Assembly (NCBI GenBank): GCA_044370415.1
Contig: JBILVO010000002.1
Span: forward strand, 14,157 to 78,156
Length of the DNA: 64,000 bases
DNA from: Pirellulales bacterium
Lineage (GTDB): Bacteria; Planctomycetota; Planctomycetia; Pirellulales; UBA1268
Reading direction: 5' to 3'
Shown here: piece after piece, positions 2,591-53,496 of the stretch
How positions within the stretch are numbered: position 1 is the stretch's first letter
Layout: every line of letters begins with the position of its first letter
Program-made: the position numbers and the translations under genes
Notes under the pieces: model-generated
The model's input: only the letters and a program-made list of their open reading frames with translations
Database searches by the model: none
What the model was told of the DNA's origin: nothing

Positions 2591-2637
2591 CAGGGAAGAG
2601 AGTTCAGGGAAGAGAGTTCAGGGAAGAGAGGTCAGGG
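2591..2637. repeat. 14-bp tandem repeat CAGGGAAGAGAGTT x3 plus a partial copy, in the convergent htrA / ATPase intergenic region
   Basis: Read directly: cagggaagagagtt (2591-2604), cagggaagagagtt (2605-2618), cagggaagagaggt (2619-2632), caggg. It contains the stop codon (2632-2634) of the minus-strand ATPase gene. Confidence 0.9.
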
Positions 2638-5600
2638 CTTCGCGGCATCCTCGCCGCCCGGGGGGTCGTCGAGAAACTTCGTGAAGTTGAACTCGTCGGC
2701 GCCAAATCCCCCCGTGATTCCGAAGCCGTCGCCGGTGGCCGGCCGCGGCGCGGCGGTCGGCCGGGCGACCGGCCGCTCGGCCGGCGTGCCCTGTGGCCTC
2801 GCCTTCAAGGCCGCCGACACCGTGGCGAGCCAGTCGTCCGCCGGGAACGAGTAGGGACGGAACTTCTCCAGCGTGCCGGTCTCCTCGTGCACGAACAGCG
2901 CCCGCTGTGGACCGAGCTTCACGGCGGCGGGGCTGTCGACGAGCTGGCTCGAGTCGGAGCCGCTCATCTGGAAGATGACACGCAGCTCGAACTCCTTGAG
3001 CGTCGCCCGCTCGAACGTCCGCTGCAGATTCGTGAGGGAGTCGCACCAGACGAGCACGTGCACGCCGACGGGCGGGCCGTCCTTGAGCAGCGTCACGAGG
3101 TTCTGCGCGGGCGTCGCCTTGGCGTCGCCACTCATGGAGTAGCCGAAATCGCTCTCGTTGCGACGCAGTTCGCGAAACCGCGCCAGATCCCGGATGATCA
3201 CGAAGACGGCCTCGCCGTCGAGGACCTGATCCTCGATCCGGCGCTTCACCTCGTCGGCGAGCCTGGCGACGGCGTCGCCCACGCCGAGCGGATTGACCAT
3301 CTCGACCTCGTGCGGCAACGAGGGGGCGAGCCGCGCCAGCATGATGTCGGGCTTTTCCTGCGCGATTGCCGGTTCGAGCACGACGAACCGGGCCGCCCGG
3401 CCGACGCAGCCCCCCGGATGCGGATCGTGCCCCACCGCCAGGCTCATCATCGCCATCGCCAGCAGGCTGACGCCGAGATCCTCGCGCTGGCCGACGATCA
3501 GCAGGTTTGCGCCCCCCTGCCTGCGGAAGATCGCCGCCGTCGGATCCTTGATGGCGATGGCGTCGCCGAGCCAGGCGAGCGGTGCCACCGGCGGCTTGCC
3601 CGCCACGGTGCCGGAATCGAGCAGTTCGGAGAGCAGCCCGTTGCCCGCGGGGTTCGCCGCCTCGTTTCCGTCGAAGACGATCCGCGGCAGCGCCGGGATG
3701 TCGGTCCGCCGGTCGGCCAGTTCCCGCAGCTTGCCCAGGAACCACTCCCGGCGTTCATCGGTGAGAAAGACGACTTGGAAGTTGTTGTTGCCCTCGATCA
3801 TGCCGTTGGCGTCGTTGTAGATCGCCTCGCCGGGGCGGGTGAGGAGCCGGGCGGCCGTGTTGTCTTCGGAGAGGATCAGGCTGGAGTCGGCCTCGTTGCA
3901 CTGCAGGGCGATGCGGATGGCCATCTGGCCCATCGTCGCGCGGGGGAGGCTGTAGGAGCCGCCGAGTGTCTGCGAGCCCAGCAGCACATGCATGCCGAAG
4001 GCTCGGCCCTGCCGCACGAGCCGGTCGAGGATGAGCGCCGCATCCTGCGCGATCTTGTCGTCCTCGACGAAGATCTCCTGGAACTCGTCGATGATCAGCA
4101 GGATGCGCGGCATGGGGTCGGGATGGCCCGTCTCGCGGAAGCCCGCCACGTTCTGCACGGAGAGCTCGCGAAACAGGTCGCCGCGTCGCTTCAGCTCCCG
4201 GTCGAGCTGCTCCATCACCGAGAGGCCGAACTCCCGCTCGCTCTCGATGGCGATCACGCGGGCGTGCGGAAGCTTGTAGTGGTCGTAGAGCTTGAACTCG
4301 ACGCCCTTCTTGAAGTCGATGAGGTAGAACTGGATCTCGTTGGGGCTGTACTGCAGCGCGAGGCTCGTGATCATCGCGTGCATCAGCGTCGACTTGCCCG
4401 AGCCAGTCTTGCCCGCGATCAGGCAGTGCTGGCTCGTGCCCTTGCCGAGCTTGAGGCTCTGGATCTTCTTGGCGCCGGCCGGGCCGAGCGGCGCGACCAC
4501 CTCGTTGGCCGTGCTTCCGTGCCACCACTTTCCCTCCTCGGGTGCCACGCGGTCGAAGGGCACCTCGACCCGCTTGGCCGCCTGCGCCGCCTTGCCCACC
4601 CGCTGGATGATCCGCGTGAAGACGTCGTCGGGCGGCGGCTGCTCGACGGAGAGCGGCCACTTCCGGAACTCGGGATCGTTCCAGGTGTACACGCCGTTCT
4701 TGAGGACGAGCGTCGTGGAGTGCTTCTCGATGTCGTCGATCGAGAAGTTCGCCGGCACCGTCTGCGTGCCGTCGATCGAGACGATCGTGTAGACGCCGCA
4801 GCGCGCGCCCGATGCGGCGATGCTCGCCAGCCGGCGGGCGCTCGTCTCCGTGAAGTTGGCAGGGAAGTTGGCCACGACGACGAAGCGATACGGCTCGGGC
4901 ACCTCGGCGGCGGCGTTGTACGCCCCGATCGACTCGTACTCGTTGCGGAGATATTTCTGGATCACCAGTTCGATCTGCTCGGTGATGTCGGCGAGCTTTT
5001 GCTCGATGAGCGGCGGCTCCGTCCAGATGCGGCTGGTCACGAGGAGCTCGTCGTAGTCGGCCAGATGCATGAAGCCGGCGAACTGCTTTCCCAGTCCGAG
5101 CGGGTCGATGATCGTGAAGCGGGTCTGGCCGGCCGGCACGCCGCTGGCGATGCGCAGCATCAGCGCCTGCATCATGTCCGAGGCCACCTCCTTCTGGTCG
5201 GCCGTCGTCTTGATGAGGAGCGACGCCTCCACCGGGAACGGGACGATGGCCGGCTGCTTCCAGCTGATGGGGCCGAAGCCATTGAAGTCCGGGCGCTGCG
5301 ACACGCCGCCCGGAATCGACTCGAGGGAGAGCGCGAGATTGCCGAACCGCAGCCCGGGCGGCGCCGTCGCCGGGAGGGCAACGTCGCCGCGTGCCAGGTC
5401 GCCCCAGTCGCGGAAGGCCTCCGCATCGATCCGTGCCGCCTCGTCGAAGACGGCGGCGGTGTCGGTGCGGGCCGTCCGCCAGTCCTCGGTCATCTTCGCC
5501 CAATCGTCGTCCCGCCGGGTGGCCGCGGCGGCCAGACGGGCGTCGCGGTCGCTCTCGAGCGTCGCGAGCCTGCTCGTGCAGTCGGCGTCGAGCTTCTCGA

Positions 5601-6753
5601 TGAGCGGGGGATACTTCTTCTGGGCCGCCTCGCAGGATGCGGCCCGACGCTGCTCGATCTTCTGCTCGTACTCCGCGCACTTCGTCTCGAGGTCGGCCAG
5701 CGACTTGTCGCGTTTCTCCGCCAGCGCCTTGACCCGCGTCTCGAACGCCTCACGGGCTACCCTGGCCTCCTCCGCGAGCGTCTGCTCGAGCTTGACCACA
5801 TCGGCGTCGTGCCGCTTGCGCAGATACTCCGCGCAGCCGGCGTGGCAGCTCTTCGCGCGGGCGATCGTCGCCGCGAGCTCGTCGTGGAGCGCCGTCGCCT
5901 CTGCTACCGCCGTTCCACGCATCCTGCCGACGAGCCACCACCCACACGCCGCGCCGCCGCCGCCGAGGACGAACAGGGCACCCGCGGCGGCTGCGGCCTT
6001 CGTCGACATCGAGTCGGCGAGCGATGCCGGCAGGAGGAGGAAGACCGCGGCTGCGGCCAGCCCGCCGAGGAGGATGGGGATCGCGATGGCGGTCGCCATC
6101 ATCCCGCCGGAGAATGCCGTGGCCACGGCCTTGAGCCCGAGCAGTTTCGTCTTGCCGGCTTCGACCGCCTCACGGAGCTGTTCGAGGTGCGTGACGAGGG
6201 ACGAGCCCGTGGGCAACGGCTCCGCGTCCTGGGCCGGAGCCGCGTCGGTGGAGGGGCCGCGGCGTATCCGTCCCAGGAACGAACGTGCCTGCGAGTCGGC
6301 CTTGTCGAGGGCCTCGACGATCGTGGCCAGTTCCTTCTCCGACCGCCGCAGCCGCTTGCCCGGCTCGGAACGCTTGTGCTTTGACTGCTCCGCGACCGTG
6401 AGTTCGTCGAATGTGCGGGATTCCTGGACCTCCTCGTTTCCGTTCTTCCAGGCCCGGTTGATCTCCGCCGCCTTGTCCTTCCGCTGCTGCGCGAGCCGAC
6501 TGCGATCGTCGGCCACCAGCTTCTCCGCATTCCTGATCGCCTCCTCGAGCGCCCGCCGTGCCGCGCCGCTCTCCCGTGCATGGGCTTCCTTCACCGCGAC
6601 GATCTCCGCGTCGGACTCCGCACGGGCCGCCGCGGTCTCCCGGTCGAACGTGGCGACGATCTCTCGTTCGAGCTTCTCCCGGCTGGCGGCTGCCTGCCGG
6701 AGGCGATCGATCTGGCGCCGCAGGAGTTCGCGGTCGTAGGCGTCGTGGGACAC
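2632..6753 (-). CDS. Membrane-anchored FtsK/SpoIIIE-family multi-P-loop ATPase (EssC/EccC-like)
   Basis: 1373-aa ORF with a GTG start at 6753. Canonical Walker A LIAGKTGSGKST (~4387-4422) and Walker B ILLIIDEFQ (~4078-4104). These are flanked by two degenerate P-loop-like blocks (TIIDPLGLGKQF...YRFVVVANFP and LLIVGQREDLG...VFVIIRDLARF). Two hydrophobic spans lie at aa ~209-242 and ~252-276 (nt ~5925-6129), between long charged heptad-rich regions. Confidence 0.85.
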   Translation of the reverse strand: MSHDAYDRELLRRQIDRLRQAAASREKLEREIVATFDRETAAARAESDAEIVAVKEAHARESGAARRALEEAIRNAEKLVADDRSRLAQQRKDKAAEINRAWKNGNEEVQESRTFDELTVAEQSKHKRSEPGKRLRRSEKELATIVEALDKADSQARSFLGRIRRGPSTDAAPAQDAEPLPTGSSLVTHLEQLREAVEAGKTKLLGLKAVATAFSGGMMATAIAIPILLGGLAAAAVFLLLPASLADSMSTKAAAAAGALFVLGGGGAACGWWLVGRMRGTAVAEATALHDELAATIARAKSCHAGCAEYLRKRHDADVVKLEQTLAEEARVAREAFETRVKALAEKRDKSLADLETKCAEYEQKIEQRRAASCEAAQKKYPPLIEKLDADCTSRLATLESDRDARLAAAATRRDDDWAKMTEDWRTARTDTAAVFDEAARIDAEAFRDWGDLARGDVALPATAPPGLRFGNLALSLESIPGGVSQRPDFNGFGPISWKQPAIVPFPVEASLLIKTTADQKEVASDMMQALMLRIASGVPAGQTRFTIIDPLGLGKQFAGFMHLADYDELLVTSRIWTEPPLIEQKLADITEQIELVIQKYLRNEYESIGAYNAAAEVPEPYRFVVVANFPANFTETSARRLASIAASGARCGVYTIVSIDGTQTVPANFSIDDIEKHSTTLVLKNGVYTWNDPEFRKWPLSVEQPPPDDVFTRIIQRVGKAAQAAKRVEVPFDRVAPEEGKWWHGSTANEVVAPLGPAGAKKIQSLKLGKGTSQHCLIAGKTGSGKSTLMHAMITSLALQYSPNEIQFYLIDFKKGVEFKLYDHYKLPHARVIAIESEREFGLSVMEQLDRELKRRGDLFRELSVQNVAGFRETGHPDPMPRILLIIDEFQEIFVEDDKIAQDAALILDRLVRQGRAFGMHVLLGSQTLGGSYSLPRATMGQMAIRIALQCNEADSSLILSEDNTAARLLTRPGEAIYNDANGMIEGNNNFQVVFLTDERREWFLGKLRELADRRTDIPALPRIVFDGNEAANPAGNGLLSELLDSGTVAGKPPVAPLAWLGDAIAIKDPTAAIFRRQGGANLLIVGQREDLGVSLLAMAMMSLAVGHDPHPGGCVGRAARFVVLEPAIAQEKPDIMLARLAPSLPHEVEMVNPLGVGDAVARLADEVKRRIEDQVLDGEAVFVIIRDLARFRELRRNESDFGYSMSGDAKATPAQNLVTLLKDGPPVGVHVLVWCDSLTNLQRTFERATLKEFELRVIFQMSGSDSSQLVDSPAAVKLGPQRALFVHEETGTLEKFRPYSFPADDWLATVSAALKARPQGTPAERPVARPTAAPRPATGDGFGITGGFGADEFNFTKFLDDPPGGEDAAKP

Positions 6754-6857: not shown

Positions 6858-7100
6858 TCAGGAATCGTCGGTGTCGCTCACGTCGCGGGCCGCGCGGGCG
6901 AGCACCTCCGCGAGCCGGCTGATGGCCTCGAGCGTCTCCTTGACCTTCGGCCGCAGGGGTTCGATGTGCTCCTCGTGAAATGCGCGGCTGGTGGCGTCGT
7001 CCCAGGAGTCGCGAGCCGACTCCCATTTGATGGCGAGATGTTTGAGCGCGAGCGCCAGTTTTGCCGCGCCGCCGGTCAATTCGCCGCCGTGGTAGCTCAT
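6858..7100 (-). CDS. 80-aa WXG100-like helical-hairpin protein
   Basis: Internal ATG at 7100 of ORF 6858..7295, overlapping the upstream gene's stop as ATGA (7097-7100). The sequence MSYHGGELTGGAAKLALALKHLAIKWESARDSWDDATSRAFHEEH... is helical with a central W-D-D-x5-F turn and sits next to the FtsK-like ATPase. The ORF track's 5' extension is Arg/Gly/Pro junk. Confidence 0.6.
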   Translation of the reverse strand: MSYHGGELTGGAAKLALALKHLAIKWESARDSWDDATSRAFHEEHIEPLRPKVKETLEAISRLAEVLARAARDVSDTDDS

Positions 7101-7711
7101 GACGCGGTCCCCCCGCGGTCGGCCCCGGGGGCGGTCGACGACGCGTCCGATGCGGCCGGCGGCTGCTCGTCGAGGCTGCGGCTCACCGACCCCGTCGCCC
7201 CTCCCTCGCCGCGGCTCGCCGCAGGGCTCGTCGCGCTGGTGTACTGGTCGAGCGAACGGAGCATCCGTTCCAGGCGGGCCATCGACCGCGGGCAATCGAT
7301 GTCGATCACCTCGCGAAACCGCGTGAGCCGCACCCCCGCCTCCTGCATCTCCTGGCGGACGATCGGCGTCCAGCGTCGGACCGCCTCCGCCTTCCGCTCG
7401 GCACGGGCGAGCTTCTTCTTGGCCTTCTCCAGCGCCTTCTTCTCCTCGGCGCAGGCCGGCTCGTTGTCGCCCACCTTCTTGTAGGTGCGGCAGTGCTGGA
7501 GGTCTTTCATGGCCTGGTTGACGCCGTCGGCGGCCCGGCGCACCTCCACCTTCCAGTAGGCCGCTTGGTCGACGCAGATCCAGTCGATGATGCGTTGGGC
7601 CTGCATCTCGACCTCGGTGATTCCCTGCCCGGTCTCATGCGAGAAGGCCACCAACGCCGTCTTCACGAACGTGATGGTGTCGATCGACTTGACATCGGCC
7701 TGGGTGGACAT
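7097..7711 (-). CDS. 204-aa helical protein of unknown function with a disordered Ser/Ala/Gly-rich tail
   Basis: Internal ATG at 7711 (MSTQADVKSIDTI...) of ORF 7097..8260, with GGAG 7-10 nt upstream. The coding-like composition begins there. It has a K/E/A/R-rich central helix (EEKKALEKAKKKLARAERKAEAVRR). I recognise no family. Confidence 0.6.
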   Translation of the reverse strand: MSTQADVKSIDTITFVKTALVAFSHETGQGITEVEMQAQRIIDWICVDQAAYWKVEVRRAADGVNQAMKDLQHCRTYKKVGDNEPACAEEKKALEKAKKKLARAERKAEAVRRWTPIVRQEMQEAGVRLTRFREVIDIDCPRSMARLERMLRSLDQYTSATSPAASRGEGGATGSVSRSLDEQPPAASDASSTAPGADRGGTAS

Positions 7712-7797: not shown

Positions 7798-8070
7798 TCA
7801 GCGCTGCTGCTGGTATTCCTCGACCCGCTCCGCCTTCCGGATCAGGTACGGGACGTAGTCGCCCGTGGCCTCGACGAAGCGGCTGAAGGTGCCCAGCTGC
7901 TGCTCGAACTCCTCCGCGAACTTCTGCTGTTCCTGGTCCCGCCAGGTGGCGCTGAGGGCTGCCAGCTGCCGCTGCACCGCCTGCATCTGCGCCATCACCT
8001 CGGTGCTGAAGACGCGCAGCCGCGCCGCAAAGCGGCGGAGTTCCTGCGGATCGACGATGACCTGTCCCAT
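7798..8070 (-). CDS. 90-aa WXG100-like helical-hairpin protein
   Basis: Internal ATG at 8070 (MGQVIVDPQELRRFAARL...) of ORF 7798..8277, preceded by GAGGAGAGGAA. Two long helices are joined by TWRDQEQQKF (W-x-D-x5-F, at the position of WxG). The size and layout match ESAT-6/EsxA-type proteins. Confidence 0.65.
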   Translation of the reverse strand: MGQVIVDPQELRRFAARLRVFSTEVMAQMQAVQRQLAALSATWRDQEQQKFAEEFEQQLGTFSRFVEATGDYVPYLIRKAERVEEYQQQR

Positions 8071-25886: not shown

Positions 25887-28800
25887 TCAGAAACCGGCGA
25901 AGGCCCGGGCCACGGTCGTCGCAACGCCGACGCTCTGCCCGTTCCCCCAGGAGATCGTGGAGGCCATGGCCATGGCGGCGTTGTTGGCGACGGCCCGGAT
26001 GCCGTTCGGCTGGATCTGGAGCGAGTAGATGCCCGTCGACGCGGTGCGGGCTGCGGGGAGCGTCAGCGTCCAGGTGGCCCCGCTGCCGGCGAGCGTCGCC
26101 CCGGTCAGGGACGCCGCGCGGCCGTTGAGCAGGAGGCGGAAGGACATGAGAGTCACGCCGGTGACCGGAGTGTTGAACGTGATCGGGATCGACAGCACCG
26201 TGGCGTTCCTGTCGAAGACGCGGGTGGGGTCGGAACTGAACCCCGTCTCCGTCGTCGAGGCGGAGATCCCTGCCGAGATGACGATGCTGCTGAGAGTTGC
26301 CAGGCGGTCGGACAGGGGCGGCAACGACTGGGATGTCATCTTGTTGCCGGCCACGTCGACGACCGGCGTGGCTGGGATCAACTGGTAGGAGACGATGTCG
26401 AGGTCCGTGGACATCTCGCCGGGGCTGACCGTGTAGGTGCCGGAGAGCAGGGTTCCCTCACTCAGGGCGGTGAGCGTGACGAACCCGCCGGTGCCGAGCT
26501 TCGCCTTGATCGCGCCACCCGCCTGTACCGGCTCGGCGAGCGTCGCCTCCACCACGACGGTTGCGCCGATGCCATACACGCCGTCGGCCGTCGGAGAACT
26601 CAGCCGCGTCACCACGGGGAGAACCCGGTCGAGCGTGAATGCGACCGCGGCAGCCGCCTCGCTCTGGTTGCCGGACGGATCCGTCTGGCTGGCGGAAACG
26701 GCGACGAGTCCGTCGCCGAGGGTCGCGAGGTCGGCGGTACTCAGCACGACCGCCTGTGCAGTGCCTTTCCCGGTGAGGGTCTTGGTGACACTGGCGGCGC
26801 CGCGGGTGAATCGCACGACGATCGTCGCGAGGCTTTCGCCGGTGACGGTGACGACGCCCGTGTTCTGCGTGGCTTCCGCGGCAGTGGCCCCGTTGGCGAT
26901 GCCGGAGCCGATCGCCAGGACGGGCGCAGTCGGCACGCCCGTGTCGAGCGTGAACCGAGCCGCGGTGGCGGACGGGCTCAGATTGCCGGCCACATCGGTC
27001 TGGACGGCCGAGACGACGACGGGGCCGTCGCCGAGGCTGGCGAGGTCGCCGACAGCGAGGACCACCGCCTGCTCGGAGCCGGTTCCGACGAGGGTTTTGG
27101 TGACCGTGTTGGTTGCGCGCGTGAAGGTGACCGCTATCGAGGCGAGGCTCTCACCCTTGACGGTGACCGCGCCGGAAGCCTGCGTGGCCTCCGCGGCGGT
27201 GGCGCCGCTCGCGATGCCCGCGCCGAGCGTGAGCGTCGGGGTGGCGGGCGCAGTGGTGTCGAGCGTGAACGGGAGCTGGGGGCCGGACGGGCTCTGATAC
27301 CCCACGAGATCGGTCTGGCGGGCCGAGACTGTCACGACGCCATTGCCGAGTGTGGCGGCGTCTTTAGAGGAGAGGGCAACCTGCTGCGCCGCGCCCGTGC
27401 CTGTGAGCGTCTTGGTCACCGTGGCGGTGCCACGGGAGAAGGTGACGACGATCACGGCGCGGGGCTCCCCGCTGACGACGACGACGCCGGCGGGCTGCTT
27501 GGACTCGGCGGCGCTGGCGCCGTTGGCGACGCCGTCGCCGAGCATCAGGTTGGGCGCCGCCGGAGCGGTGGTGTCGAGCACAAACTGGACCTGATTGCCC
27601 GCCGGGCCCGGATTGCCGGCGCGGTCCGCCAGGACGGCGGAAACTGTCACCAATCCGTCGCCGAGCGCCGTCAGATGCTCGGGTGTGAGCAACACCGCCT
27701 GGGAAGCGCCGGTGCCGGTGAGGCTTTTGGTGACGGACCGCGGGCCGTTGACGAAGGTGACCGTGATCGCCGCGAGGCTCTCGCCCTTCACGGTGACGAC
27801 TCCCGAGGCCTGGGTGGCCTCGGAGGCGGTGGCGCCGTTGGCGATGCCCGTGCCAAGCGTCACGACTGGCGCTGACGGCGGCGCCGTGTCGAGCGTGAAC
27901 TGCATCTGGCTGGCCGCCGTGGTCTGGTTGCCGGAGGGATCCGTCTGGGTGGCCGAGACGGTGACGAGCCCGTTGCCAAGCGCGGCCACCTCTCCGCCGG
28001 TGAGAACGACCGGCTGTGCCGCGCCGGTTCCCGTCAGCGTCTTGGTCAGCGATCCGCTGCCGCGGGTGAACCTGACCAGGATCGAGGCGAGGCTCTCGCC
28101 GGCGACGGTGACGACCCCGGAGGCCTGGGTGGCCTCCGCGAGGGTGACGCCGCCCGCGGGGGCCAGGCCCACGCCGTCACCCGGAGTCAGCGAGGGCGTT
28201 GCGGGAACGACCGTGTCGAGCGTGAACGTGGTCAGGGTGGGCTGGCTCTGGTTGCGGGCAGCGTCCATTTGGATTGCGGAGACGGTGACGACCCCGTCGC
28301 CAAGCGTCGTGAGATCACCGGCGGCGAGGACGACCGCCTGCGGGCCGCCCTTTCCCGTGAGAGTCTTGGTGACCGTATTGGATTCCCGCGTGAAACTGAC
28401 GACGATCGAGGCGAGGCGCTCACCGGCGACGGTGACAACCCCGGAGGCCTGTGTGGCCTCGGCGGCGGTGACGCCGTTCGCGACGCCGGCGTTGAGCGTC
28501 AGCAGCGGGGCCGACGGAACCGCCGCGTCGAGCGTGAACTGGAACTGGCCGCTGGTCGCGCCGGGGTTGCCGGCCGGGTCGGTCTGCCGGGCAGTGACGG
28601 TCACCCGACCGTCGCCAAGTTGGGCGATCTCGCCGGGGGTGAGCACGACGCCCTGCGCCGCACCGGAGGCGGTGAGCGTCTTGCCGACGGTTCCGAACGG
28701 CCCGACGAACTGCACCGCGATCGTGCCGGCGGCCTCTCCCGTCACCAGCACGACGCCGCCGCCCTGTCCGGCCTGACTGCCGTTGACGAGGCTGCCGATG

Positions 28801-31800
28801 CCCGATCCGGCGACGACCGCCGGGGCGGCCGGCGCGACTGAGTCGAGCGTGAACGACACCGTCGCCGCCGGGCTCGGGTTGTCGGGAAGGAGGGACTGCG
28901 TGGCCGATACGACGACGAGCCCGTCGCCGAGCGAGTCGAGTTCGGTGACGGTGCAGGCGATCGCCTGCTCGGTGCCGTCGCCGACGAGGTTGCGGACCAC
29001 GCTGCCGCCGACGCCGGCGAATGTCACGGTGATCGCGGCGCCCGGAGCGCCCACGACCGTGACGGCACCGGACGGCTGCCGGGCCTCGCTCCGTGTCGCC
29101 CCGCCGCCGGGGGCGATACCGACTCCGGCACCGAGCGCCAGGACCGGGGCCGCCGGCGGCGGAATCACCACGTCCGCGAACCGCACGGCGAGCGTCTGGG
29201 ACGGATCGCCCACCGTGGTCGCCGTCGTGTAGGTCTGGCCGGCGAACCTCACCGAGACCTCGTAGGATCCGCTGAACGCCCGCGCCGTGTAGCTGCCGTC
29301 GAAGGTCGTCCCGCGGACGTCGGTCCACCAATCCCCGAACACGAGATCCTCGTAGGCCTGGCCGCTCGGCTTGATGCTGAAGTCGGCGCGGTAGAGCCGC
29401 GCATCGGGCTGATAGTTCGTCCCGGCCCAGAATCCCCATTGCAGGAATTCGTCGGTGCCCGGCTGGCTGAACACCATCGTCATGTAGTCGCGCAGGTAAT
29501 CCGCCTGCAGCTGCTCGTCGGTCGTGTCGAGATCGAACTCGGTGATCGCGACCGGCAGCGAATACCGGTCGTGGTAATACTGGATCAGGGTCCCGAGCGT
29601 GGTGATGTCGGTGAGGACGTTCTCGGTGTAGTGGCTCTGTTCGCCGATGACGTCCACCAGCGACCGAGCGGTCAGGCGGTCGAGCCAGGCCTCGAAGTTG
29701 GCCCGGTGCGCTGTATCGCCGCCGTTGCGGGCGAAGATGTAGTAGTCGTTGAGGGCCAGCCGCGCCTCAGGATCGTGCTCGCGAAAGAGCTGGTACCAGT
29801 CGGCGACGACGGCATCGCCCAGCACGTCCATGACGTCGTGGTTGGCGTAGGGCTCGTTGACCACGTCCCACTCGTACGCCATCCCCGCGAAGGTGTCGGC
29901 GGCCGCGATGATGCGGGCGGCGACGGCGTCGCGCAGGTAGGTGCCCGCGGCCGTCTTGCCATCCGTGGCCAGCAGGGAGTCGTAGCGCGACCACACCGCC
30001 GCGGGCATGAAGCTGCGGCTGGGCCAGACGGCGGTGTGGCCCCGCAGGTCCAGCCCCGCATCGAGGATCCATTGCGCGGCGTCGATTCCCTGCTGGGGAT
30101 TCCTGTCGGACTCGACCCACTTCATCGAGTTCTCGACGACGGCGGTGTTGAACAGCCGTGTGAGGAGCGCCTGGTAGGCGAGCGCATCGGGGCCGCCGCT
30201 GGCTGAGAGCAGGGAGCCGGATGCGCTGACGGCCGTGCCGAACCGGAAATCGTGCCGCTGCTGCCGCAGTGTGACCACGGCCCCCGGGATCGCCCGGCCG
30301 TTGGCGTCGGTGACGGAGACCGTCAGGTTGGCCATGCGGTTCGCGGCGATGCGGGAGTCGGCGGCGGCCCGCCAGGCATCCGTACCCGACCGCCCCCCGT
30401 AGGAGGTCGAGGGCACCCGCATGGGCAGGTTGCCCACGTCGACCCGCGAGACGTCACGCCAGGTGAACCCGCCGATCTCCACGGCCTGCGGATCGAAGCC
30501 GGCGTTGAACGCGACCTGCAGCTGGCCGACCGCGTACTCCCGCGACGCTGCGACCGTAAACGAATACTGCCGCCACGTGGACGATGGAGAGATGGACGTC
30601 GAGTAGCGGGCGGTGTACGACCCGAATCGATCCTGCAGCACGACGCTGATGCGGGGCGTGGCTCCCGAGATCGACCGGGCCCAGTACGTCACCTCCATCG
30701 TGTCGCCACTGGCGACCGCCGCGCCACTCGCCGCGACCGCCTGGAATTGATAGCTCGCGGGAGGCTTCGTCACGGTGGTGAGCCTGAAGGCCGTCGTGAA
30801 CGGCTGGTCGACCACGCTGACCGACTGCAGCGTGCCGTAGGTGCTGCCGCTGTTGCCGAGGGAGAGGCCGGCGGCCGTGACGAGATCGGGCGACGGCCCG
30901 AAGTTGAGGAGGCGCACTCCGGCGAACTGCAGCGTCTGGACCGCGTAGCCCAGCTGCAGACTGAAGTTCGCCTGGCCTACCGCATAGGAGGCGGCGACCT
31001 GAAAGGGAATCTGCACCTTGTTCCAGTTCGTGTCGACCATCATGTTGCGGGCGAGCGACTTCGCGTATGACACCGCGTCTTCGAAGACCACGGAGAACTG
31101 GCCGCTGGATGTGTCCGAGCGGACCCAGAACTCGGCCCAGAGCACGTCCCCGCGGGTGACCGCCACGGCGTTCGACTGGCGTATCTGCGCCATTGAGGAT
31201 GCCGACGGCACGGCCGTGATGGCGGCCTGAATCACGCTGCCCAGGGTGGCATCCGTCACGGTGGAGAAGCTGCCGCCGTAGGTCACGAAGTTCGACCTGG
31301 CCGAGCCCGCGAGGATCGATGTGCCGCCGGTCGGCACGGGGGCATCGTCCTGCACCGAGATCGTCGCCGTCCGCTTGCCCCGCAGATCGACGTCGTAGCC
31401 CGCCGCCTGCTTCAGCTCCACGACGACCGCCTCAACGCCTTCCGCGCGAGCGTCGACCAGCGCCGACACCTCGAGGGATACCGCCGACTGCCCGGCCGGA
31501 ATGGTGATCGTGCCCGGCAGCGCGACGTAGTCGACGCCGTTCGCGGCCTGCCCCTGCAGCGCGTAGGAGACGGTGAGCGGGGCGGTCGTCGGGCCGCCGC
31601 TGCGCACGATCGACAGCCGCGCGGGGCTGGCCGATCCCTCAGCGGTGGTCGGAGTGTCGGCATAGATGCTCACCAGGGGCAGCACGGGCGTGAGGTACTC
31701 GCCGGCGATCGGCTCGAACGTGGTGGCGCCGGGACGCATCCAGCCGATGGCCAGCGAATCGTCACCCCCAGACTCTTTGTGCAGCGCCTCGATGAAGTAG

Positions 31801-32714
31801 GACTGGCCGGCGACGAGCGGCAGCGGCACCGAACGTTGCGTGGGTGATTGCTGCCAGCCGCGTGGCCCGCCGGGTGAGTCGAGGAAGGCGATCCGCCGCC
31901 GGCCCTCGGGAGAGGCGTCGTTGCTGAGCCACAGCTCCGCCGCGTCGTCGCCGGCGATCGAGAACAGATAGGTGCCGGTCGTCGGCGGCGCGAGGAAGCC
32001 GCGCAGCCGGCTGCCGTAGGCGTCGCCGGCGTTGGCCGGGGCCTCGGATGTGGCGATCGTGCCCGTGGTCGACGGCGTCGCGGGAAAGGCCGCGGCGGAT
32101 GTGAGATCGGTGACCCTGCCGCCGGGGATGCCCGTCCACGTCTCGCGGGTCAGGCCGCCGCGCTGGGCGGCGAAGAGCTGCGTGGCGGGGATCACCTCCA
32201 GCGGCTGGCTCGCGCTGCTCCAGCGGAGGCTGACCGCAGCGTTGCCCTCGGCCTCGGCATATTCCAGCACGATGTCGTAGCGGCGGCCGGCGACCAGCGC
32301 GATCGTTCCCGGGCTGCTCGCGGAGCCCGCCGTCGCGAAGCCGTCGACGAGGAGCTGGCCGTTGACCCACAGCCGGGCCGCGTCGTCGGTGGTCGCGGTG
32401 AAGGAATAGTCTTCGGTGTACTTGGCCTCGATCTGGCCGCTCCAACGGACGGAAAATGCGTCGCTGCCGAGCGACGCACCCGGCGAGCCGCCGAGCCAAT
32501 TGGCAGCGACCGTCGAGTCGATCCGGGCGAACGCGAGCGTGGAAAAGGAGGAGTCGCCGTAATACTGTGCCAACAGGCCGTTGCCCGCCAGCGTGTCCAA
32601 GGCGAGCAGCTGGCGACGCTCCAGCGTCTCGAGCAGCAGCCGGCGATCACGTCTCCGCCGCAGGCTGCGCGGCGTGGGCTGCGGTCTCCGCGGCAGGAAG
32701 TGCGGCCACGCCAT
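25887..32714 (-). CDS. Giant secreted multidomain glycoside hydrolase: PA14-like x2, Calx-beta, CBM-like modules, GH10 xylanase-type catalytic domain, 8 Ig-like tandem repeats
   Basis: ATG at 32714 follows GGTGGAGGT and gives MAWPHFLPRR...RRRRDRRLLLETLERRQLLA. PA14 signature: SVRWSGQIEAKYTEDYSF...DDAARLWVNGQLL. Calx-beta: VSYALQGQAANGVDYVALPGTITIPAGQ. GH10 motifs: VENSMKW, GHTAVW, WDVVNEP, LNDYY, GEQSHY, AITEFDLDT. Confidence 0.85.
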   Translation of the reverse strand: MAWPHFLPRRPQPTPRSLRRRRDRRLLLETLERRQLLALDTLAGNGLLAQYYGDSSFSTLAFARIDSTVAANWLGGSPGASLGSDAFSVRWSGQIEAKYTEDYSFTATTDDAARLWVNGQLLVDGFATAGSASSPGTIALVAGRRYDIVLEYAEAEGNAAVSLRWSSASQPLEVIPATQLFAAQRGGLTRETWTGIPGGRVTDLTSAAAFPATPSTTGTIATSEAPANAGDAYGSRLRGFLAPPTTGTYLFSIAGDDAAELWLSNDASPEGRRRIAFLDSPGGPRGWQQSPTQRSVPLPLVAGQSYFIEALHKESGGDDSLAIGWMRPGATTFEPIAGEYLTPVLPLVSIYADTPTTAEGSASPARLSIVRSGGPTTAPLTVSYALQGQAANGVDYVALPGTITIPAGQSAVSLEVSALVDARAEGVEAVVVELKQAAGYDVDLRGKRTATISVQDDAPVPTGGTSILAGSARSNFVTYGGSFSTVTDATLGSVIQAAITAVPSASSMAQIRQSNAVAVTRGDVLWAEFWVRSDTSSGQFSVVFEDAVSYAKSLARNMMVDTNWNKVQIPFQVAASYAVGQANFSLQLGYAVQTLQFAGVRLLNFGPSPDLVTAAGLSLGNSGSTYGTLQSVSVVDQPFTTAFRLTTVTKPPASYQFQAVAASGAAVASGDTMEVTYWARSISGATPRISVVLQDRFGSYTARYSTSISPSSTWRQYSFTVAASREYAVGQLQVAFNAGFDPQAVEIGGFTWRDVSRVDVGNLPMRVPSTSYGGRSGTDAWRAAADSRIAANRMANLTVSVTDANGRAIPGAVVTLRQQRHDFRFGTAVSASGSLLSASGGPDALAYQALLTRLFNTAVVENSMKWVESDRNPQQGIDAAQWILDAGLDLRGHTAVWPSRSFMPAAVWSRYDSLLATDGKTAAGTYLRDAVAARIIAAADTFAGMAYEWDVVNEPYANHDVMDVLGDAVVADWYQLFREHDPEARLALNDYYIFARNGGDTAHRANFEAWLDRLTARSLVDVIGEQSHYTENVLTDITTLGTLIQYYHDRYSLPVAITEFDLDTTDEQLQADYLRDYMTMVFSQPGTDEFLQWGFWAGTNYQPDARLYRADFSIKPSGQAYEDLVFGDWWTDVRGTTFDGSYTARAFSGSYEVSVRFAGQTYTTATTVGDPSQTLAVRFADVVIPPPAAPVLALGAGVGIAPGGGATRSEARQPSGAVTVVGAPGAAITVTFAGVGGSVVRNLVGDGTEQAIACTVTELDSLGDGLVVVSATQSLLPDNPSPAATVSFTLDSVAPAAPAVVAGSGIGSLVNGSQAGQGGGVVLVTGEAAGTIAVQFVGPFGTVGKTLTASGAAQGVVLTPGEIAQLGDGRVTVTARQTDPAGNPGATSGQFQFTLDAAVPSAPLLTLNAGVANGVTAAEATQASGVVTVAGERLASIVVSFTRESNTVTKTLTGKGGPQAVVLAAGDLTTLGDGVVTVSAIQMDAARNQSQPTLTTFTLDTVVPATPSLTPGDGVGLAPAGGVTLAEATQASGVVTVAGESLASILVRFTRGSGSLTKTLTGTGAAQPVVLTGGEVAALGNGLVTVSATQTDPSGNQTTAASQMQFTLDTAPPSAPVVTLGTGIANGATASEATQASGVVTVKGESLAAITVTFVNGPRSVTKSLTGTGASQAVLLTPEHLTALGDGLVTVSAVLADRAGNPGPAGNQVQFVLDTTAPAAPNLMLGDGVANGASAAESKQPAGVVVVSGEPRAVIVVTFSRGTATVTKTLTGTGAAQQVALSSKDAATLGNGVVTVSARQTDLVGYQSPSGPQLPFTLDTTAPATPTLTLGAGIASGATAAEATQASGAVTVKGESLASIAVTFTRATNTVTKTLVGTGSEQAVVLAVGDLASLGDGPVVVSAVQTDVAGNLSPSATAARFTLDTGVPTAPVLAIGSGIANGATAAEATQNTGVVTVTGESLATIVVRFTRGAASVTKTLTGKGTAQAVVLSTADLATLGDGLVAVSASQTDPSGNQSEAAAAVAFTLDRVLPVVTRLSSPTADGVYGIGATVVVEATLAEPVQAGGAIKAKLGTGGFVTLTALSEGTLLSGTYTVSPGEMSTDLDIVSYQLIPATPVVDVAGNKMTSQSLPPLSDRLATLSSIVISAGISASTTETGFSSDPTRVFDRNATVLSIPITFNTPVTGVTLMSFRLLLNGRAASLTGATLAGSGATWTLTLPAARTASTGIYSLQIQPNGIRAVANNAAMAMASTISWGNGQSVGVATTVARAFAGF
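26640..29165 (-). repeat. Eight in-frame ~315-nt (~105-aa) tandem repeats inside the giant protein gene
   Basis: Units are delimited by F(T/V)LD(T/S/A/R)..P.(A/T)P. Consensus: LG.G.A.G.TA.EATQASGVVTV.GE.LA.I.V.F.R....TKTL.G.G..Q.VVL...D...LGDG.V.VSA.QTD..GN. The boundaries are approximate. Confidence 0.8.
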
Positions 32715-33244
32715 GGGTACCTCCACCTGATGATGGGATAAGCCCCGCCCTGACGTAAAAAGTCGTCCGACCGGTGGGCACATCATCCTGCCGGCCAACC
32801 CCCCGCGAACGTCGAAGAGTGTACGAGAGGTCGAGGTCCGACGGCAATGGGGTTTGTGCACGCCGAGCCTTTTCCCAGCCGGCCTGACGCGGCCTGCGAT
32901 TCTTCATCGGCACGACGCCAACCCCAGCGAGAGTATGCGGGGCAGGCGTTGCTTCGGTTCATCAGGACGGGGCAGGCCGCCGCCGCCGGTCGCCCCACGG
33001 TGCCCCTGACCCGCGCCGCGGCGGCGCTGGAAAAGACAGGTCGGCCAGCGCGGCGATGGACGCAGCGACTGCGTTATCCGGTACGCTAAGGGCCCGGTCA
33101 GGAGCGGCCTGGGCGGGTGGCTGCCGCCGCGAGAAGGGGTGCGGCGGACGGCAGGTGGGTGGCGACCGAACGAAGTGGGAGCATGGCATGCTGCGGACAC
33201 TTTTTCACCATGACGCAGGCCCAACGGATTGCAGCGAGTGGCGG

Positions 33245-36004
33245 ATGACGCGCCGCCGACCGCCGGCCTTTCTTGCGGAGCTGGTGCTGGCTCTCACTGC
33301 CGTCGTCGCGGCCCTTGCAGCCCGTGCCGACGAGGGGATGTGGCTCTTCAGCCATCCGCCGCTGGAGCGGATCCACAGGGACCATGCGGCCGCGCTTGGG
33401 GGTGTGAAGCTCTCGCCCGAATGGCTCGGCCACCTGCAGCAGTCGTCGGTGCGGTTCAACTCCGGAGGCTCGGGCTCGTTCGTCTCTCCCGACGGCCTCG
33501 TGCTCACCAACCACCACGTCGGGGCCGACGCCCTGCAGAAGCTCGGCGACGCCGACCACAACTACTACCGCGACGGCTTCGCTGCGGCCACGCAGGCCGA
33601 CGAGCTCACGTGCCACGATCTCGAGCTCAACGTGCTCATGTCGATCGAGGACGTGACGGCGCGGGTGCAGGCGGCGGTGACGCCGGGGATGGATCCGCCG
33701 GCCGCGTTCGCCGCCCGCCGCAGGGTGATGGCCGAGATCGAAAAGCAGTCGCTGGCTGCCACCGGGCTGCGGAGCGATGTGGTGACGCTCCATCAGGGCG
33801 GGCTCTACCACCTCTACCGGTCGAAGAAATACACCGACGTGCGGCTCGTCTTCGCCCCCGAGCAGCAGATCGCGTTCTTCGGGGGCGACGCCGATAATTT
33901 CGAATTCCCGCGGTTCAACCTCGACGTCTGCTTCTTCCGCGCCTACGAGAACGGCGCGCCGGCGCGGGTGCCGCACCATCTCACGTGGAGCAGGCAGCCG
34001 GTCGCCGCGGGCGACCTCGTCTTCGTCTCGGGACATCCGGGCCACACGGACCGCGCAAGCACCGTGCGCGAGCTCGTCGCCATGCGGGACCGGCAGAGTC
34101 CGTTTGCGCTGTCGATGCTCAACCGGCTCGAGGTGATGCTCGGGGCCTACAGCGACGAGGGGCCGGAGGAACGCCGGCAGGCGATGGAGGATCTCTTCGG
34201 CGTGCAGAACGGCCGCAAGGCGCGGGAGGGCATTCTGGCCGGGCTGCTCGATCCGCGATTCATGAAGCGGAAGCAGGAGGCAGAGACGCGGCTGCGCGAG
34301 CGGCTGGCGAAGTCGCGGCCGGCGGGCGGCGGCTCGCCGCAGGTGTCGCCGTTCGAGCGGATCGAGCAGGCGGAGGAGCAGATCGCGAAGGTGGCGCTGC
34401 GGCACAACCTGCTCGAGGGGGCGGTCGGGTTCAACAGTCGGTATTTCTCGAACGCGCGAACGATCCTGCGGGCCGCCGCAGAGGCCGCCACGCCGAGCGG
34501 CGAACGGCTCCGCGAATACCGCGACTCCAACCGGGAGTCGCTCGAGTTCCAGCTCTTCTCCGCCGAGCCGATCCACGACGCCTTCGAGACCGTGAAGCTG
34601 GCTGACTCGCTCACGTATCTGGCCACGGCGCTGGGGCCCAACGACCCGCTCGTGCAGCGGGTGCTGGCTGGTCTGCCCCCGCGGGAGCGGGCGGCGCAGG
34701 TCGTCCGCGGCACCGGGCTGGGCACGCGAGCTGCCGAGCCGGGAGCCGCCGCTCCGGCCGACACGCGCCGGGCCCTCTACGACGGCGGCACGGCGGCGGT
34801 CGCCGCCTCGAAAGATCCGATGCTCGAACTGGCGCGGATCGTCGACGAGGAGGCGCGGTCGCTGCGGAAGGTGGTCGAGGCGGCGGGCGAGATGAAGCGG
34901 CAGGCGCACGCCGAGATCACGCAGTCCGTTTTCGCGGAGGAGGGCGAGGGCGTTTATCCCGACGCCACGTTCACGCTGCGGCTCGCCTACGGCACGGTGA
35001 AGGGCTACGAGCAGGGCGGGCGGAGCGTCGCGCCGATCACGACATATGCCGGCCTCTTCGCCCGGGCGCATGAGAAGCGGGAGGCGCCGCCGTTCGACCT
35101 GCCCGAGCGGTGGCGAAAGCTCGAGCCGGAACTCGAGCGAGACGAGGCCTTCCTGAAGACGCCGTTCAACTTCATCTCCACGGCCGACATCATCGGGGGC
35201 AACAGCGGCAGCCCGGTGGTCAACGTGGCGGGCGAGCTGGTGGGGCTGATCTTCGACGGCAACATCGAGTCGCTCGTGCTCGACCTGGCCTACGACGACG
35301 AGCGGGCCCGCGCCGTGTCGGTCGACGCCGCCGGAATCCTCGCGGCGCTCACGAAGGTCTACCGTGCCGACTGGCTCGTGAAGGAGCTGACGGCCGCCGG
35401 GGCCACGCGGGGCGCGGCCGGCGGGGAGTGGCGGTCGCTGTTCGACGGCAGGGCGCTCGGCGGCTGGCGGCCCACGGCCTTCGGCGGTGAGGGGGAGGTG
35501 GAGGTTGAGAACGGCGCCATCCGCATCGGCATGGGGGCCGACATGAGCGGCATCACCTGGACGGGCGACGTGCCGCGGCAGGGCTACGAGCTGGCGGTCG
35601 ACGCGCAGCGGGCCGACGGCAGCGACTTCTTCTGCGGGCTGACGTTTCCGGTGGGCGAGGATCCCTGCAGCCTGATCGTGGGCGGCTGGGGGGGCGGCCT
35701 CGTGGGTCTTTCGAGCATCGACGGCCAGGATGCCGCGCGGAACGACACGACGAGCTTCCACGAATTCAAGCGGGGCACGTGGTACGCGATCCGCGTCCGC
35801 GTCACCCCGGAGCGGATCGAGTGCTTCATCGACGACAAGCAGGTCGTCGATCAGCCGCTCGAGGGCCGGCGGATCTCGATCCGCGAGGAGGTGCGGGCGT
35901 CGGTGCCGTTGGGCATCGCCACCTACGCGACGACGGCACTGGTGAAGAACATCCGCTGGCGGCCGGTCGGGCCGCAGGCGGCGGGTCCGGAGAAACGGCC
36001 GTGA
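33245..36004 (+). CDS. Secreted S46-family (DPP7/DPP11-like) serine peptidase fused to a C-terminal DUF1080/LamG-like domain
   Basis: ATG at 33245 gives the signal MTRRRPPAFLAELVLALTAVVAALAARADEGMW. S46 marks: DEGMW, SGGSGSFVSPDGLVLTNHHV (His) and IIGGNSGSPVVN (Ser). The last ~190 aa (WRSLFDGRALGGWR...GTWYAIRVRV...VKNIRWRP) look like a DUF1080 domain. Confidence 0.8.
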   Translation: MTRRRPPAFLAELVLALTAVVAALAARADEGMWLFSHPPLERIHRDHAAALGGVKLSPEWLGHLQQSSVRFNSGGSGSFVSPDGLVLTNHHVGADALQKLGDADHNYYRDGFAAATQADELTCHDLELNVLMSIEDVTARVQAAVTPGMDPPAAFAARRRVMAEIEKQSLAATGLRSDVVTLHQGGLYHLYRSKKYTDVRLVFAPEQQIAFFGGDADNFEFPRFNLDVCFFRAYENGAPARVPHHLTWSRQPVAAGDLVFVSGHPGHTDRASTVRELVAMRDRQSPFALSMLNRLEVMLGAYSDEGPEERRQAMEDLFGVQNGRKAREGILAGLLDPRFMKRKQEAETRLRERLAKSRPAGGGSPQVSPFERIEQAEEQIAKVALRHNLLEGAVGFNSRYFSNARTILRAAAEAATPSGERLREYRDSNRESLEFQLFSAEPIHDAFETVKLADSLTYLATALGPNDPLVQRVLAGLPPRERAAQVVRGTGLGTRAAEPGAAAPADTRRALYDGGTAAVAASKDPMLELARIVDEEARSLRKVVEAAGEMKRQAHAEITQSVFAEEGEGVYPDATFTLRLAYGTVKGYEQGGRSVAPITTYAGLFARAHEKREAPPFDLPERWRKLEPELERDEAFLKTPFNFISTADIIGGNSGSPVVNVAGELVGLIFDGNIESLVLDLAYDDERARAVSVDAAGILAALTKVYRADWLVKELTAAGATRGAAGGEWRSLFDGRALGGWRPTAFGGEGEVEVENGAIRIGMGADMSGITWTGDVPRQGYELAVDAQRADGSDFFCGLTFPVGEDPCSLIVGGWGGGLVGLSSIDGQDAARNDTTSFHEFKRGTWYAIRVRVTPERIECFIDDKQVVDQPLEGRRISIREEVRASVPLGIATYATTALVKNIRWRPVGPQAAGPEKRP

Positions 36005-46988: not shown

Positions 46989-47012
46989 TGCGGGTTTCCG
47001 TAGCGATCTGCG

Positions 47013-51168: not shown

Positions 51169-51250
51169 GGTGCCGAACTCCGTGTGCGCCTGTGTCCTGT
51201 GACCGTGTCCCGCGACTGTGTTCTCGGTGTCGGTGCCGCCGCGGTGCGGA

Positions 51251-52156: not shown

Positions 52157-52387
52157 GGGTGCTCCTTCTGGTTCGCGGTGGATCGTGGGTGGGGTGGACG
52201 GGTTCGGGGCGGAATGCGCTGCCGGCGGGCGGGCCGTGTGGGACGTGAGGGACTCTGCCTGTCCTATCGATTCTTGCCCACTTTTCGGGCTCGGGTCGGG
52301 CTGCGGGTCATCGTGGCCGTCCCGATCGGTCGGGGTGTCGGGGTCGTGCGGGTCGTAGGGTCTTTCGGCGTGCTTTCAGACGAGGTT

Positions 52388-52666
52388 TCAGGCGATGTCG
52401 AGGCGGTCGATGAGGGCCGCGACGTACGCGTCGACGGGCTTGGCATCCGGCTCGAAGGGCTGCGCCGCCTCGCCACCCTCGCTGAAGGCGACGAGCTGGC
52501 CGTAGCCGCTGCCCAGGTCATCCCAGGCCACCAGCGGCTCTGCGGGGCCGTCGGCGGCGGCGAGATCGGCCGCTGCCAGGGGCACCAGGAGCGTGAGCCT
52601 GCCGCCGCGCACCGTCGGGTGCGGCTCGACGAGGGTCACGGTGCCGATCGCGCGTCCGATTCTCAT
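52388..52666 (-). CDS. BMC-P (EutN/CcmL-family) microcompartment vertex protein, paralog 1
   Basis: 92 aa. MRIGRAIGTVTLVEPHP...G.RLLLV.. pattern, with AVDAYVAALIDRLDI at the C-terminus. Confidence 0.85.
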   Translation of the reverse strand: MRIGRAIGTVTLVEPHPTVRGGRLTLLVPLAAADLAAADGPAEPLVAWDDLGSGYGQLVAFSEGGEAAQPFEPDAKPVDAYVAALIDRLDIA

Positions 52667-52678
52667 GGTGGTGTCGCC

Positions 52679-53437: not shown

Positions 53438-53496
53438 GGTGGGGAGTGTCGCGGGGAACGAGGATCGGTCGGGACGGGCCGGTCTGGGCTGCTCGA

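Follow-up and report, generated by a model that had tools for sequence, protein, structure and literature searches.

Among membrane-anchored FtsK-like ATPases with WXG100 partners, EccC comprises two transmembrane helices, a helical stalk, a DUF with a degenerate ATPase fold, an active D1 and the degenerate D2 and D3, and the central bundle of the ESX pore is made of its transmembrane helices (PMC11154593). Zhang et al. (2012; PMC3482391) recorded, in one table footnote, a three-domain YueA-like ATPase of the HerA/FtsK type that occurs with a solo WXG protein; they already noted its degenerate/active/degenerate three-domain core, called these systems mobile variants of T7SS (type VII secretion system) and explicitly listed Planctomycetes among the hosts. 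The ESAT-6-like protein HP0062 has a WRD in its bend and is clustered with an FtsK/SpoIIIE protein (PMC3397514). We note that this Helicobacter pylori protein (3FX7) appears to belong to the solo-WXG three-domain type. The T7SS variants surveyed in 2024 are confined to Bacillota and Actinomycetota (PMC11217815), and on T7SS or WXG100 proteins in Planctomycetes the 2012 footnote alone turned up, with no follow-up found in the literature searched. Here we analyse a 64,000-nucleotide stretch of a Pirellulales bacterium genome (assembly GCA_044370415.1, contig JBILVO010000002.1, positions 14,157 to 78,156), hereafter the window, and focus on a gene for a 1373-residue FtsK-like ATPase and on the small genes beside it.

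The cassette to which this gene belongs represents, in Planctomycetota, the little-studied systems of the HP0062 type that pair a solo WXG100 protein with a three-domain FtsK-like ATPase. The two share three tandem FtsK-like domains with Walker A and B in the middle one alone, and an adjacent stand-alone WXG100 gene of the WRD type. The planctomycete protein, on the other hand, adds an N-terminal arm of ~470 residues (helix, hydrophobic hairpin, helix), and the cassette adds a second WXG100-like gene and a conserved gene for a 204-residue protein; whereas the earlier systems were described as mobile, this one is chromosomal, lies among housekeeping genes and is conserved across the phylum. The arm, which is found only in Planctomycetota, and the fixed four-gene chromosomal cassette are thus the new part. 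No description of an N-terminal helical stalk with a membrane hairpin was found in the literature searched.

Domain layout of the ATPase

The features of the ATPase gene are listed below in protein order, with the evidence for each in brackets; AF2 stands for AlphaFold2.

2632..6753, minus strand: ATPase gene, 1373 residues, GTG start (open reading frame list and translation)
6262..6732, minus strand: N-terminal arm, one long amphipathic helix, residues 8-164, ~23 nm if straight (AF2, periodicity, composition)
5926..6129, minus strand: hydrophobic helical hairpin, residues 209-276 (hydropathy, AF2, constant position, K/R-rich flanks)
5416..5925, minus strand: second arm, residues 277-446, ~25 nm, helix continuous with the second hydrophobic helix (AF2)
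4549..5346, minus strand: block 1, degenerate FtsK-like domain, residues 470-735 (AF2, hhalign)
5179-5223, minus strand: block 1 P-loop equivalent SLLIKTTADQKEVAS (SLLIKT-TADQKE-VAS), residues 511-525
4861-4890, minus strand: block 1 Walker B equivalent YRFVVVANFP
3724..4548, minus strand: block 2, active FtsK/EccC-D1-like ATPase domain by its motifs, residues 736-1010 (Pfam, PDB, motifs)
4387-4413, minus strand: block 2 Walker A GKTGSGKST
4078-4101, minus strand: block 2 Walker B LLIIDEFQ
2809..3723, minus strand: block 3, degenerate FtsK-like domain, residues 1011-1315 (hhalign, AF2)
3472-3504, minus strand: block 3 P-loop equivalent LLIVGQREDLG
3175-3207, minus strand: block 3 Walker B equivalent VFVIIRDLARF
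2635..2808, minus strand: Pro/Gly/Ala-rich tail, residues 1316-1373 (composition)

The open reading frame (ORF) is real and conserved. In a window of 70% GC, its GC content is 0.91 at third and 0.47 at second codon positions, and the frame is therefore coding. The public protein collection holds one identical protein and ~40 full-length homologues (38-81% identity, ~1220-1450 residues), the named ones all from metagenome-assembled genomes (MAGs) of Planctomycetia. Furthermore, a scan of species-representative genomes matched at least 600 stretches, at least 570 of which encode a relative. From N- to C-terminus the window protein consists of a long helix, a pair of hydrophobic helices, another long helix, three alpha/beta domains of the FtsK-like kind and a tail of Pro, Gly and Ala. 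The same domain order was found again in ~70 independent loci, which argues that it did not arise by chance. High-GC DNA does yield many long spurious ORFs on both strands, so that one might suspect a fusion by misassembly or frameshift, or a non-coding frame that is open by chance. Such an artefact is, however, practically excluded by the codon-position composition expected of coding DNA and by the recurrence of a single ORF with identical domain order, and an arm-only profile matched 206 clusters at E <= 1e-10 among 1.84 billion representative proteins; we regard it as refuted by these conservation data. The ORF and its layout had been proposed in an initial annotation made from the sequence alone; both were borne out, and all the strings quoted there lie at the residues to which they had been assigned.

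AF2 modelling of residues 440-1320 (mean pLDDT, the model's local confidence score, 83.9) yields three consecutive alpha/beta domains with an identical order of strands and helices. When this 881-residue model was compared with the PDB by Foldseek, the top match was Thermomonospora curvata EccC (4nh0, D1-D3; E 3e-33), which covers the whole model over 972 columns, followed by EccC D2-D3 (4n1a), EssC D2-D3 (4lya and 5fv0), FtsK motors and TcpA. Searches of Pfam, NCBIfam and PDB sequences with the whole protein recognised block 2 alone. Pfam FtsK_SpoIIIE lies there (E 3.9e-30), and the best PDB sequence match is again EccC 4nh0 (E 7e-33), where it falls upstream of the D2-D3 portion in what we read as D1; local profile searches place D1 first and D2 second. 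In profile-profile comparison by hhalign, with diverse profiles, blocks 2 and 3 are connected at 96.4% (E 1.4e-9) and blocks 1 and 3 at 90.7% (E 1.3e-6). Block 1 against block 2 was insignificant in hhalign, both with close homologues (E 0.027) and with diverse profiles (E 0.24), and the homology of block 1 is therefore taken from its link to block 3 together with its AF2 fold. Searched against PDB sequences, the profiles of blocks 1 and 3 gave nothing significant, the nearest being E 0.08 to EssC D2 in the block 1 Walker B region and E 1.6 to EccC5. By profile-profile comparison and AF2 fold, both blocks are nevertheless degenerate FtsK-like domains, and their P-loop fold, which the initial annotation had left exposed to refutation, is upheld by AF2, by the Foldseek comparison with EccC and EssC and by hhalign.

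The motifs tell the same story across 27 diverse homologues. In block 2 the GSGKS core and DEFQ are invariant, the only changes being one K-to-R and one T-to-S, whereas blocks 1 and 3 have degenerate motifs in every one of the 27. The loop of block 1 is variable, mostly x-x-x-G-[RK]-x-x-A (TADQKEVA in the window protein), and the block also has VVA[ND]FP; in block 3 the loop reads VGQ-x-[ED]-[ED], and the Walker B position varies. By motif criteria the middle domain alone is thus predicted to bind and hydrolyse ATP. This agrees with the three FtsK-like blocks of the initial annotation, which had likewise put canonical Walker motifs in the middle block only and had placed YRFVVVANFP and both block 3 motifs correctly. 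Its block 1 P-loop, however, has to be moved: TIIDPLGLGKQF (residues 547-558) corresponds to strand beta-2 and the next loop and is the counterpart of LIDFKKGVEF in block 2. Nor is the degenerate/active/degenerate order really non-canonical, as had been thought, since it is the order noted by Zhang et al. and parallels DUF-D1-D2 of EccC. The ATPase reads as DUF-D1-Dx, that is, the EccC order minus one domain and not a reshuffled one. We also observed a likeness between GQREDLG, the degenerate P-loop of block 3, and GEREQVL, which is reported as the degenerate Walker A of the EccC5 DUF (PMC11154593); it may be coincidental or may hint at where the domain came from.

The tail that follows block 3 contains Pro, Gly and Ala at 16% each, as the initial annotation had described. 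Most members of the ATPase family have no tail. The terminal peptide EFNFTKFLDDPP (2659-2694, minus strand) is conserved only in the window's own clade, as EFNFxK[FM]LDDPP, while in another clade (L034, L035, L037, L049, L052, L053, L055 and L057) the C-terminal end is DDLSQFTIL. Such clade-specific C-terminal peptides may be docking or autoregulatory motifs.

The arm was modelled by AF2 from an alignment of 33 family members (mean pLDDT 84.6). Residues 8-164 form one unbroken helix (pLDDT 88-98) that is 39% Asp, Glu, Lys or Arg and has a hydrophobic periodicity of 3.65 residues (z = 7.4 against shuffles); a disordered linker (165-184) and short helices (185-213) follow. A charged, heptad-like region of ~200 residues had been noted at this end of the protein. 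The long charged helix holds, whereas its spacing is amphipathic and not cleanly heptad. The two hydrophobic spans that had been noted next to it lie at residues 209-250 and 253-271 (Kyte-Doolittle, 19-residue window), and the AF2 helices agree, with one helix at 216-240, an 8-residue loop and a further helix from 249. The hairpin is Gly/Ala-rich, with two helices of ~24 residues and a loop of ~8, and Lys and Arg number 3.0 and 3.6 per 15 residues in its flanks and ~1 in the loop. Its second helix runs unbroken into the second arm, as a single helix from 249 to 446 (pLDDT up to 97); the charged helical region expected there was thus recovered, with 37% charged residues and a periodicity of 3.65 (z = 3.7 against shuffles). 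Both long helices are amphipathic, with a spacing nearer hendecad than strict heptad.

Across the phylum the second arm measures ~190 residues and is nearly constant in length. The offset of the hairpin from the start of block 1 is in fact constant in ~60 loci (-255 to -190), from which it follows that the length of the second arm is nearly fixed. The hairpin is retained in most planctomycete members and there appears to span the membrane fully. Eight loci, which form a clade of close relatives (L005, L007, L013, L014, L020, L024, L031 and L051), have lost it by a clean deletion of ~60 residues; here the two arms are joined by a short turn, the cassette is kept, and no extra membrane protein is apparent near any of the eight. 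When the arm model was searched by Foldseek, weak matches (E 3e-3 or worse) over ~350-460 columns were obtained to antiparallel coiled-coil hairpins, among them the chemoreceptor cytoplasmic domain, Rad50, MukB, the dynein stalk and AhlB/SmhB.

We can now consider how the arm is arranged. The pair of hydrophobic helices, the cytoplasmic location of the ATPase, the K/R-rich flanks of the hairpin and the shortness of its loop together argue that both arms are cytoplasmic. The coiled coils, which the initial annotation had placed on both sides of the membrane anchor, flank it in the linear sequence only. Residues 164 and 277 must then both be near the membrane, the hairpin-less clade retains both arms joined by a short turn, the length of the second arm is nearly fixed and the Foldseek matches are antiparallel hairpins; for these reasons the long helices most likely pair in an antiparallel manner, predicted to give one cytoplasmic stalk of ~23-25 nm with the membrane hairpin at its tip. 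An envelope-spanning role for the coiled coils, which had also been suggested, is unlikely in view of this topology and of the hairpin-less clade, and we rejected an envelope-spanning coiled coil on topological grounds. The chemoreceptor, Rad50/SMC/MukB, dynein and AhlB/SmhB stalks resemble the arm in having long helices that fold back with a functional tip. They share no sequence homology with it, however, and the planctomycete protein has a hydrophobic hairpin as its tip and an FtsK-like triple head on one arm only, so the likeness is an analogy of shape and no family relationship.

The cassette and its relatives

The ATPase gene is the last of four genes on the same strand, in the order WXG100-A, 204-residue protein, WXG100-like B and ATPase. 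The three upstream genes are as follows.

7798..8070, minus strand: WXG100 gene A, 90 residues, HP0062-like, TWRDQE bend, preceded by GGAGAGGA
7097..7711, minus strand: gene for a 204-residue protein ('MID'), position and order conserved in >50 loci
6858..7100, minus strand: WXG100-like gene B, 80 residues, W-x-D bend (Pfam WXG100)

Gene A matches Pfam WXG100 (PF06013) with E 2.4e-10 and 41 bits against a gathering cut-off of 27.3. Its closest solved structure is H. pylori HP0062 (3fx7; E 3.8e-6 over the full length, with the WRD common to both), and the protein is 46-93% identical across the phylum. Gene B scores below the gathering threshold (E 6e-5, 23.6 bits) and is hence called WXG100-like only; an hhalign comparison of the two small proteins gives 44%. 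The literal W-x-G motif is absent from the bends of both, W-x-D standing in its place (TWRDQE in A, SWDD in B). The 204-residue protein consists of a conserved core of ~160 residues, predicted from sequence to be helical, and a variable tail; it has no relative in Pfam or the PDB and is not detectably a duplicated WXG100. The ATG of gene B overlaps the stop of the gene before it (ATGA, 7097-7100), and in >50 loci gene B lies directly upstream of the ATPase gene.

The cassette is flanked by an HtrA-like protease and CinA on one side and by HemQ, GreA, RpoD and DnaG on the other, and no mobile-element genes were seen around it. A promoter and terminator scan of the region gave nothing above shuffled background. 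In the neighbour comparison nothing beyond the four genes is conserved except among close relatives, and this includes membrane and outer-membrane components.

In >50 of the best 80 loci of the genome scan the order of the four genes is kept, in Pirellulales, Gemmatales, Isosphaerales and Phycisphaerae, so that the cassette-bearing best-matching loci span several orders and two classes of the phylum. The best 80 stretches are almost all labelled Planctomycetota and include Pirellulales, Gemmataceae, Isosphaeraceae (with the isolate Singulisphaera sp. Ch08, L027, which carries the cassette), Thermoguttaceae, Phycisphaerales and Tepidisphaeraceae; the exceptions, one labelled Chitinophagaceae and one 'bacterium', are evidently mislabelled bins. 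Among the hits of the arm-only profile, the near-full-length proteins (~1290-1540 residues) bear the arm N-terminally, the shorter ones look like fragments, and the few that are named are Planctomycetes. The cassette looks vertically inherited. The homologues, the cassette in >50 loci and the arm profile hits thus bear out the earlier proposal of a distinct lineage, and a conserved one. As a side observation, several MAG bins with close relatives carry the labels 'Candidatus Kuenenia' or 'Chitinophagaceae' (L001, L011, L012, L015, L016, L018, L026, L035 and L043); these labels look unreliable because the sequences group with Pirellulales-type loci.

The relatives that we examined in other phyla have no arm. 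They are 820-950 residues long and contain no convincing transmembrane segment, the Helicobacter relative having one hydrophobic stretch barely over threshold, and some of these arm-less cassettes contain no membrane protein. Plasmids of Rhodococcus, Deinococcus and Caballeronia carry three-domain relatives with a coverage of the core of at least 80%, and a large Micromonosporaceae family consists of arm-less three-domain ATPases of ~890 residues. The WXG-A profile recognises the WXG100 genes beside the three-domain ATPases of Caballeronia (E 1e-24), Helicobacter (6e-16), Rhodococcus (1.5e-12) and Deinococcus (1e-8); in the Micromonospora cassette the core is shared and the small upstream protein gives a weak WXG100 match. 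Two candidates were set aside in this comparison. P0042 was rejected as a truncated relative, as it represents the arm-less Micromonosporaceae family, and the 1322-residue Rhodococcus plasmid protein was rejected as an arm-bearer, as its N-terminus is a TerD-like domain. Two of the plasmid cassettes have further genes: that of Helicobacter sp. plasmid pNHP190012_1 (L085, 2047-6449) also carries an HNH toxin and an SMI1/KNR4 immunity gene, and that of the Caballeronia plasmid (L082, 1501-11484) occurs with VWA, PP2C phosphatase, Ser/Thr kinase and CARF genes.

Possible function of the cassette

We favour, with somewhat better than even confidence, a role for the ATPase as a T7SS-like motor that exports WXG100 proteins and is tethered to the membrane by its stalk. 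Export, the formation of a ring and the identity of the substrates are inferred in this reading. The three-domain head would form a ring, probably a hexamer, like other ATPases of the FtsK/EccC type; block 2 would hydrolyse ATP, and blocks 1 and 3 would serve as scaffold and offer substrate or regulatory sites. The ring might engage dimers of both small WXG100 hairpin proteins, perhaps with the 204-residue protein as partner or adaptor, and drive their export across the cytoplasmic membrane. The stalk would hold the head at a fixed distance of ~23-25 nm from that membrane, and the clustered tip hairpins, 12 helices per hexamer, could add to membrane passage as the EccC helices do in ESX pores. 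In a relative, a link to export is suggested by the HNH toxin and SMI1/KNR4 immunity gene of the Helicobacter plasmid cassette.

A number of observations weigh against export. It is argued from homology and context alone. The arm-less relatives have no transmembrane segment and some of their cassettes lack any membrane protein, so the core family may not be a self-sufficient exporter, and the eight hairpin-less planctomycete loci keep the cassette. A stalk of 25 nm sets the motor far from the membrane, unlike the short stalk of EccC. No outer-membrane component is linked to the cassette, although Planctomycetes are diderm, and no gene beyond the four is conserved beside it. The housekeeping surroundings (GreA, RpoD, DnaG and HemQ) and the vertical look would fit a cell-biological role equally well. 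Finally, the Foldseek E-values of the arm are weak (3e-3 or worse), and the pairing of its helices is argued indirectly.

It could be asked whether the protein simply belongs to a canonical T7SSa or T7SSb, as an ordinary EssC or EccC with domains that have diverged too far to be recognised. It does resemble EccC, and also EssC/YukB of T7SSb and the TsxC ATPases of T7SSc-j, in joining two transmembrane helices and an FtsK-like ATPase to WXG100 partners; EccC and EssC are its top Foldseek matches, block 2 fits D1 best, the order of its domains parallels DUF-D1-D2 and NCBIfam reports partial hits to EssC, EccCa and EccCb. These hits, however, reach only 103, 114 and 100 bits against cut-offs of 778, 509 and 347; the match to EssC (TIGR03928, 102.6 bits) covers residues 742-976 only, and those to EccC (TIGR03924 and TIGR03925) are likewise below cut-off. 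Pfam finds no FHA domain in the ATPase at E <= 1, and its N-terminus is one long helix, whereas EssC has two N-terminal FHA domains; some T7SS variants (TsgC) also lack them (PMC11217815). The protein has three P-loop-like domains where EccC has four, one fewer than EssC as well, and neither block 1 nor block 3 matches DUF, D2 or D3 significantly in sequence. Its transmembrane pair is preceded by a helix of ~200 residues and followed by one of ~170 residues, in contrast to the short stalk of EccC, and the two helices probably form a long antiparallel stalk that EssC does not have. Up to ~10-13 kb from the cassette, the called genes include no T7SS core genes, neither EccB, EccD, EccE or MycP of the EccC systems nor EsaA, EssA, EssB or the EsaB/YukD-like ubiquitin-fold gene of the EssC systems, and the closest full-length relatives outside the phylum are soluble three-domain proteins of ~900 residues. 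A canonical EssC or EccC is thus highly improbable, in agreement with the initial annotation, which had taken the protein for a distinct lineage of the family. A DNA translocase of the FtsK/SpoIIIE/TraB or coupling-protein type, acting in chromosome segregation or conjugation, is very unlikely for different reasons. The Pfam FtsK_SpoIIIE match, the Foldseek matches to FtsK motors and TcpA and the occurrence of relatives on plasmids would suit it. On the other hand, the Pfam search found neither an FtsK gamma domain (PF09397) nor the four-helix membrane domain (PF13491), whereas true FtsK hits in the homologue search carry PF09397 and PF17854; in sequence the protein matches FtsK (E 8e-12) far less well than EccC (E 7e-33), and the gene is fixed beside WXG100 genes, with no relaxase or conjugation gene near the cassette.

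A cytoplasmic, membrane-proximal machine that remodels or assembles the WXG100-like and 204-residue proteins inside the cell is a more serious competitor of export, one that we consider rather unlikely on balance. The stalk and hairpin would merely localise such a machine, for example at the invaginated cytoplasmic membrane or at the budding or division sites of Planctomycetes. The phylum-wide cassette in a housekeeping neighbourhood, the hairpin-less clade, the soluble core relatives elsewhere and the absence of linked membrane or outer-membrane components all suit this view, and the head-stalk-tip layout is nearer to SMC, Rad50, chemoreceptor and dynein stalks than to any secretion ATPase. 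Against it, every characterised pair of WXG100 protein and FtsK-like ATPase is a secretion system (PMC11217815 and PMC4010439); block 2 is closest to EccC D1, relatives stand beside toxin and immunity pairs, and most planctomycete members retain the apparently membrane-spanning hairpin.

Some further proposals go beyond tethered export and are doubtful: that the arm turns a soluble three-domain WXG100 ATPase into a self-contained exporter, or that the head-stalk-tip protein is a tethering or remodelling motor of the planctomycete endomembrane. As a self-contained exporter, six hairpin arms could assemble into a cytoplasmic tube or cage of 12 helices, ~23 nm long and continuous with a 12-helix membrane pore, to which WXG100 dimers would be fed from a ring held far below the membrane. 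If this were true, a single-protein T7SS-like machine would be a housekeeping feature of Planctomycetota.

Whichever role is correct, Planctomycetota carry a solo-WXG system as a fixed, apparently vertically conserved four-gene cassette to which what is most likely a long-stalk membrane tether has been added. If the WXG100 proteins are exported, a diderm phylum would possess a minimal T7SS-like machine, whose small number of parts might help to reveal the essential core of type VII secretion. If they are not, a cellular role other than secretion would have to be granted to WXG100 proteins and EccC-like ATPases.

Other loci in the window

Elsewhere in the window, positions 50230-59400 hold a bacterial microcompartment locus of the planctomycete type, with genes for a lactate/malate dehydrogenase-like protein, a class II aldolase, two EutN/CcmL proteins, an aldehyde dehydrogenase, an acetate kinase, a BMC-H shell protein and a DeoR regulator. 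Just before it (47004-50225, plus strand) lies a gene for a 1073-residue protein in which an N-terminal Ser/Thr kinase domain is fused to a long WD40 array. A 2338-residue protein (25887-32903, minus strand) combines PA14, GLEYA, Calx-beta, glycoside hydrolase family 10 and Big_13 domains and is likely a large surface or secreted glycan-degrading protein. The gene at 32888-36004 (plus strand) encodes a fusion in which an S46 peptidase of the DPP11 type is joined to a 3-keto-disaccharide hydrolase domain (PF06439) at the C-terminus; fusions of this sort are common in Planctomycetes.

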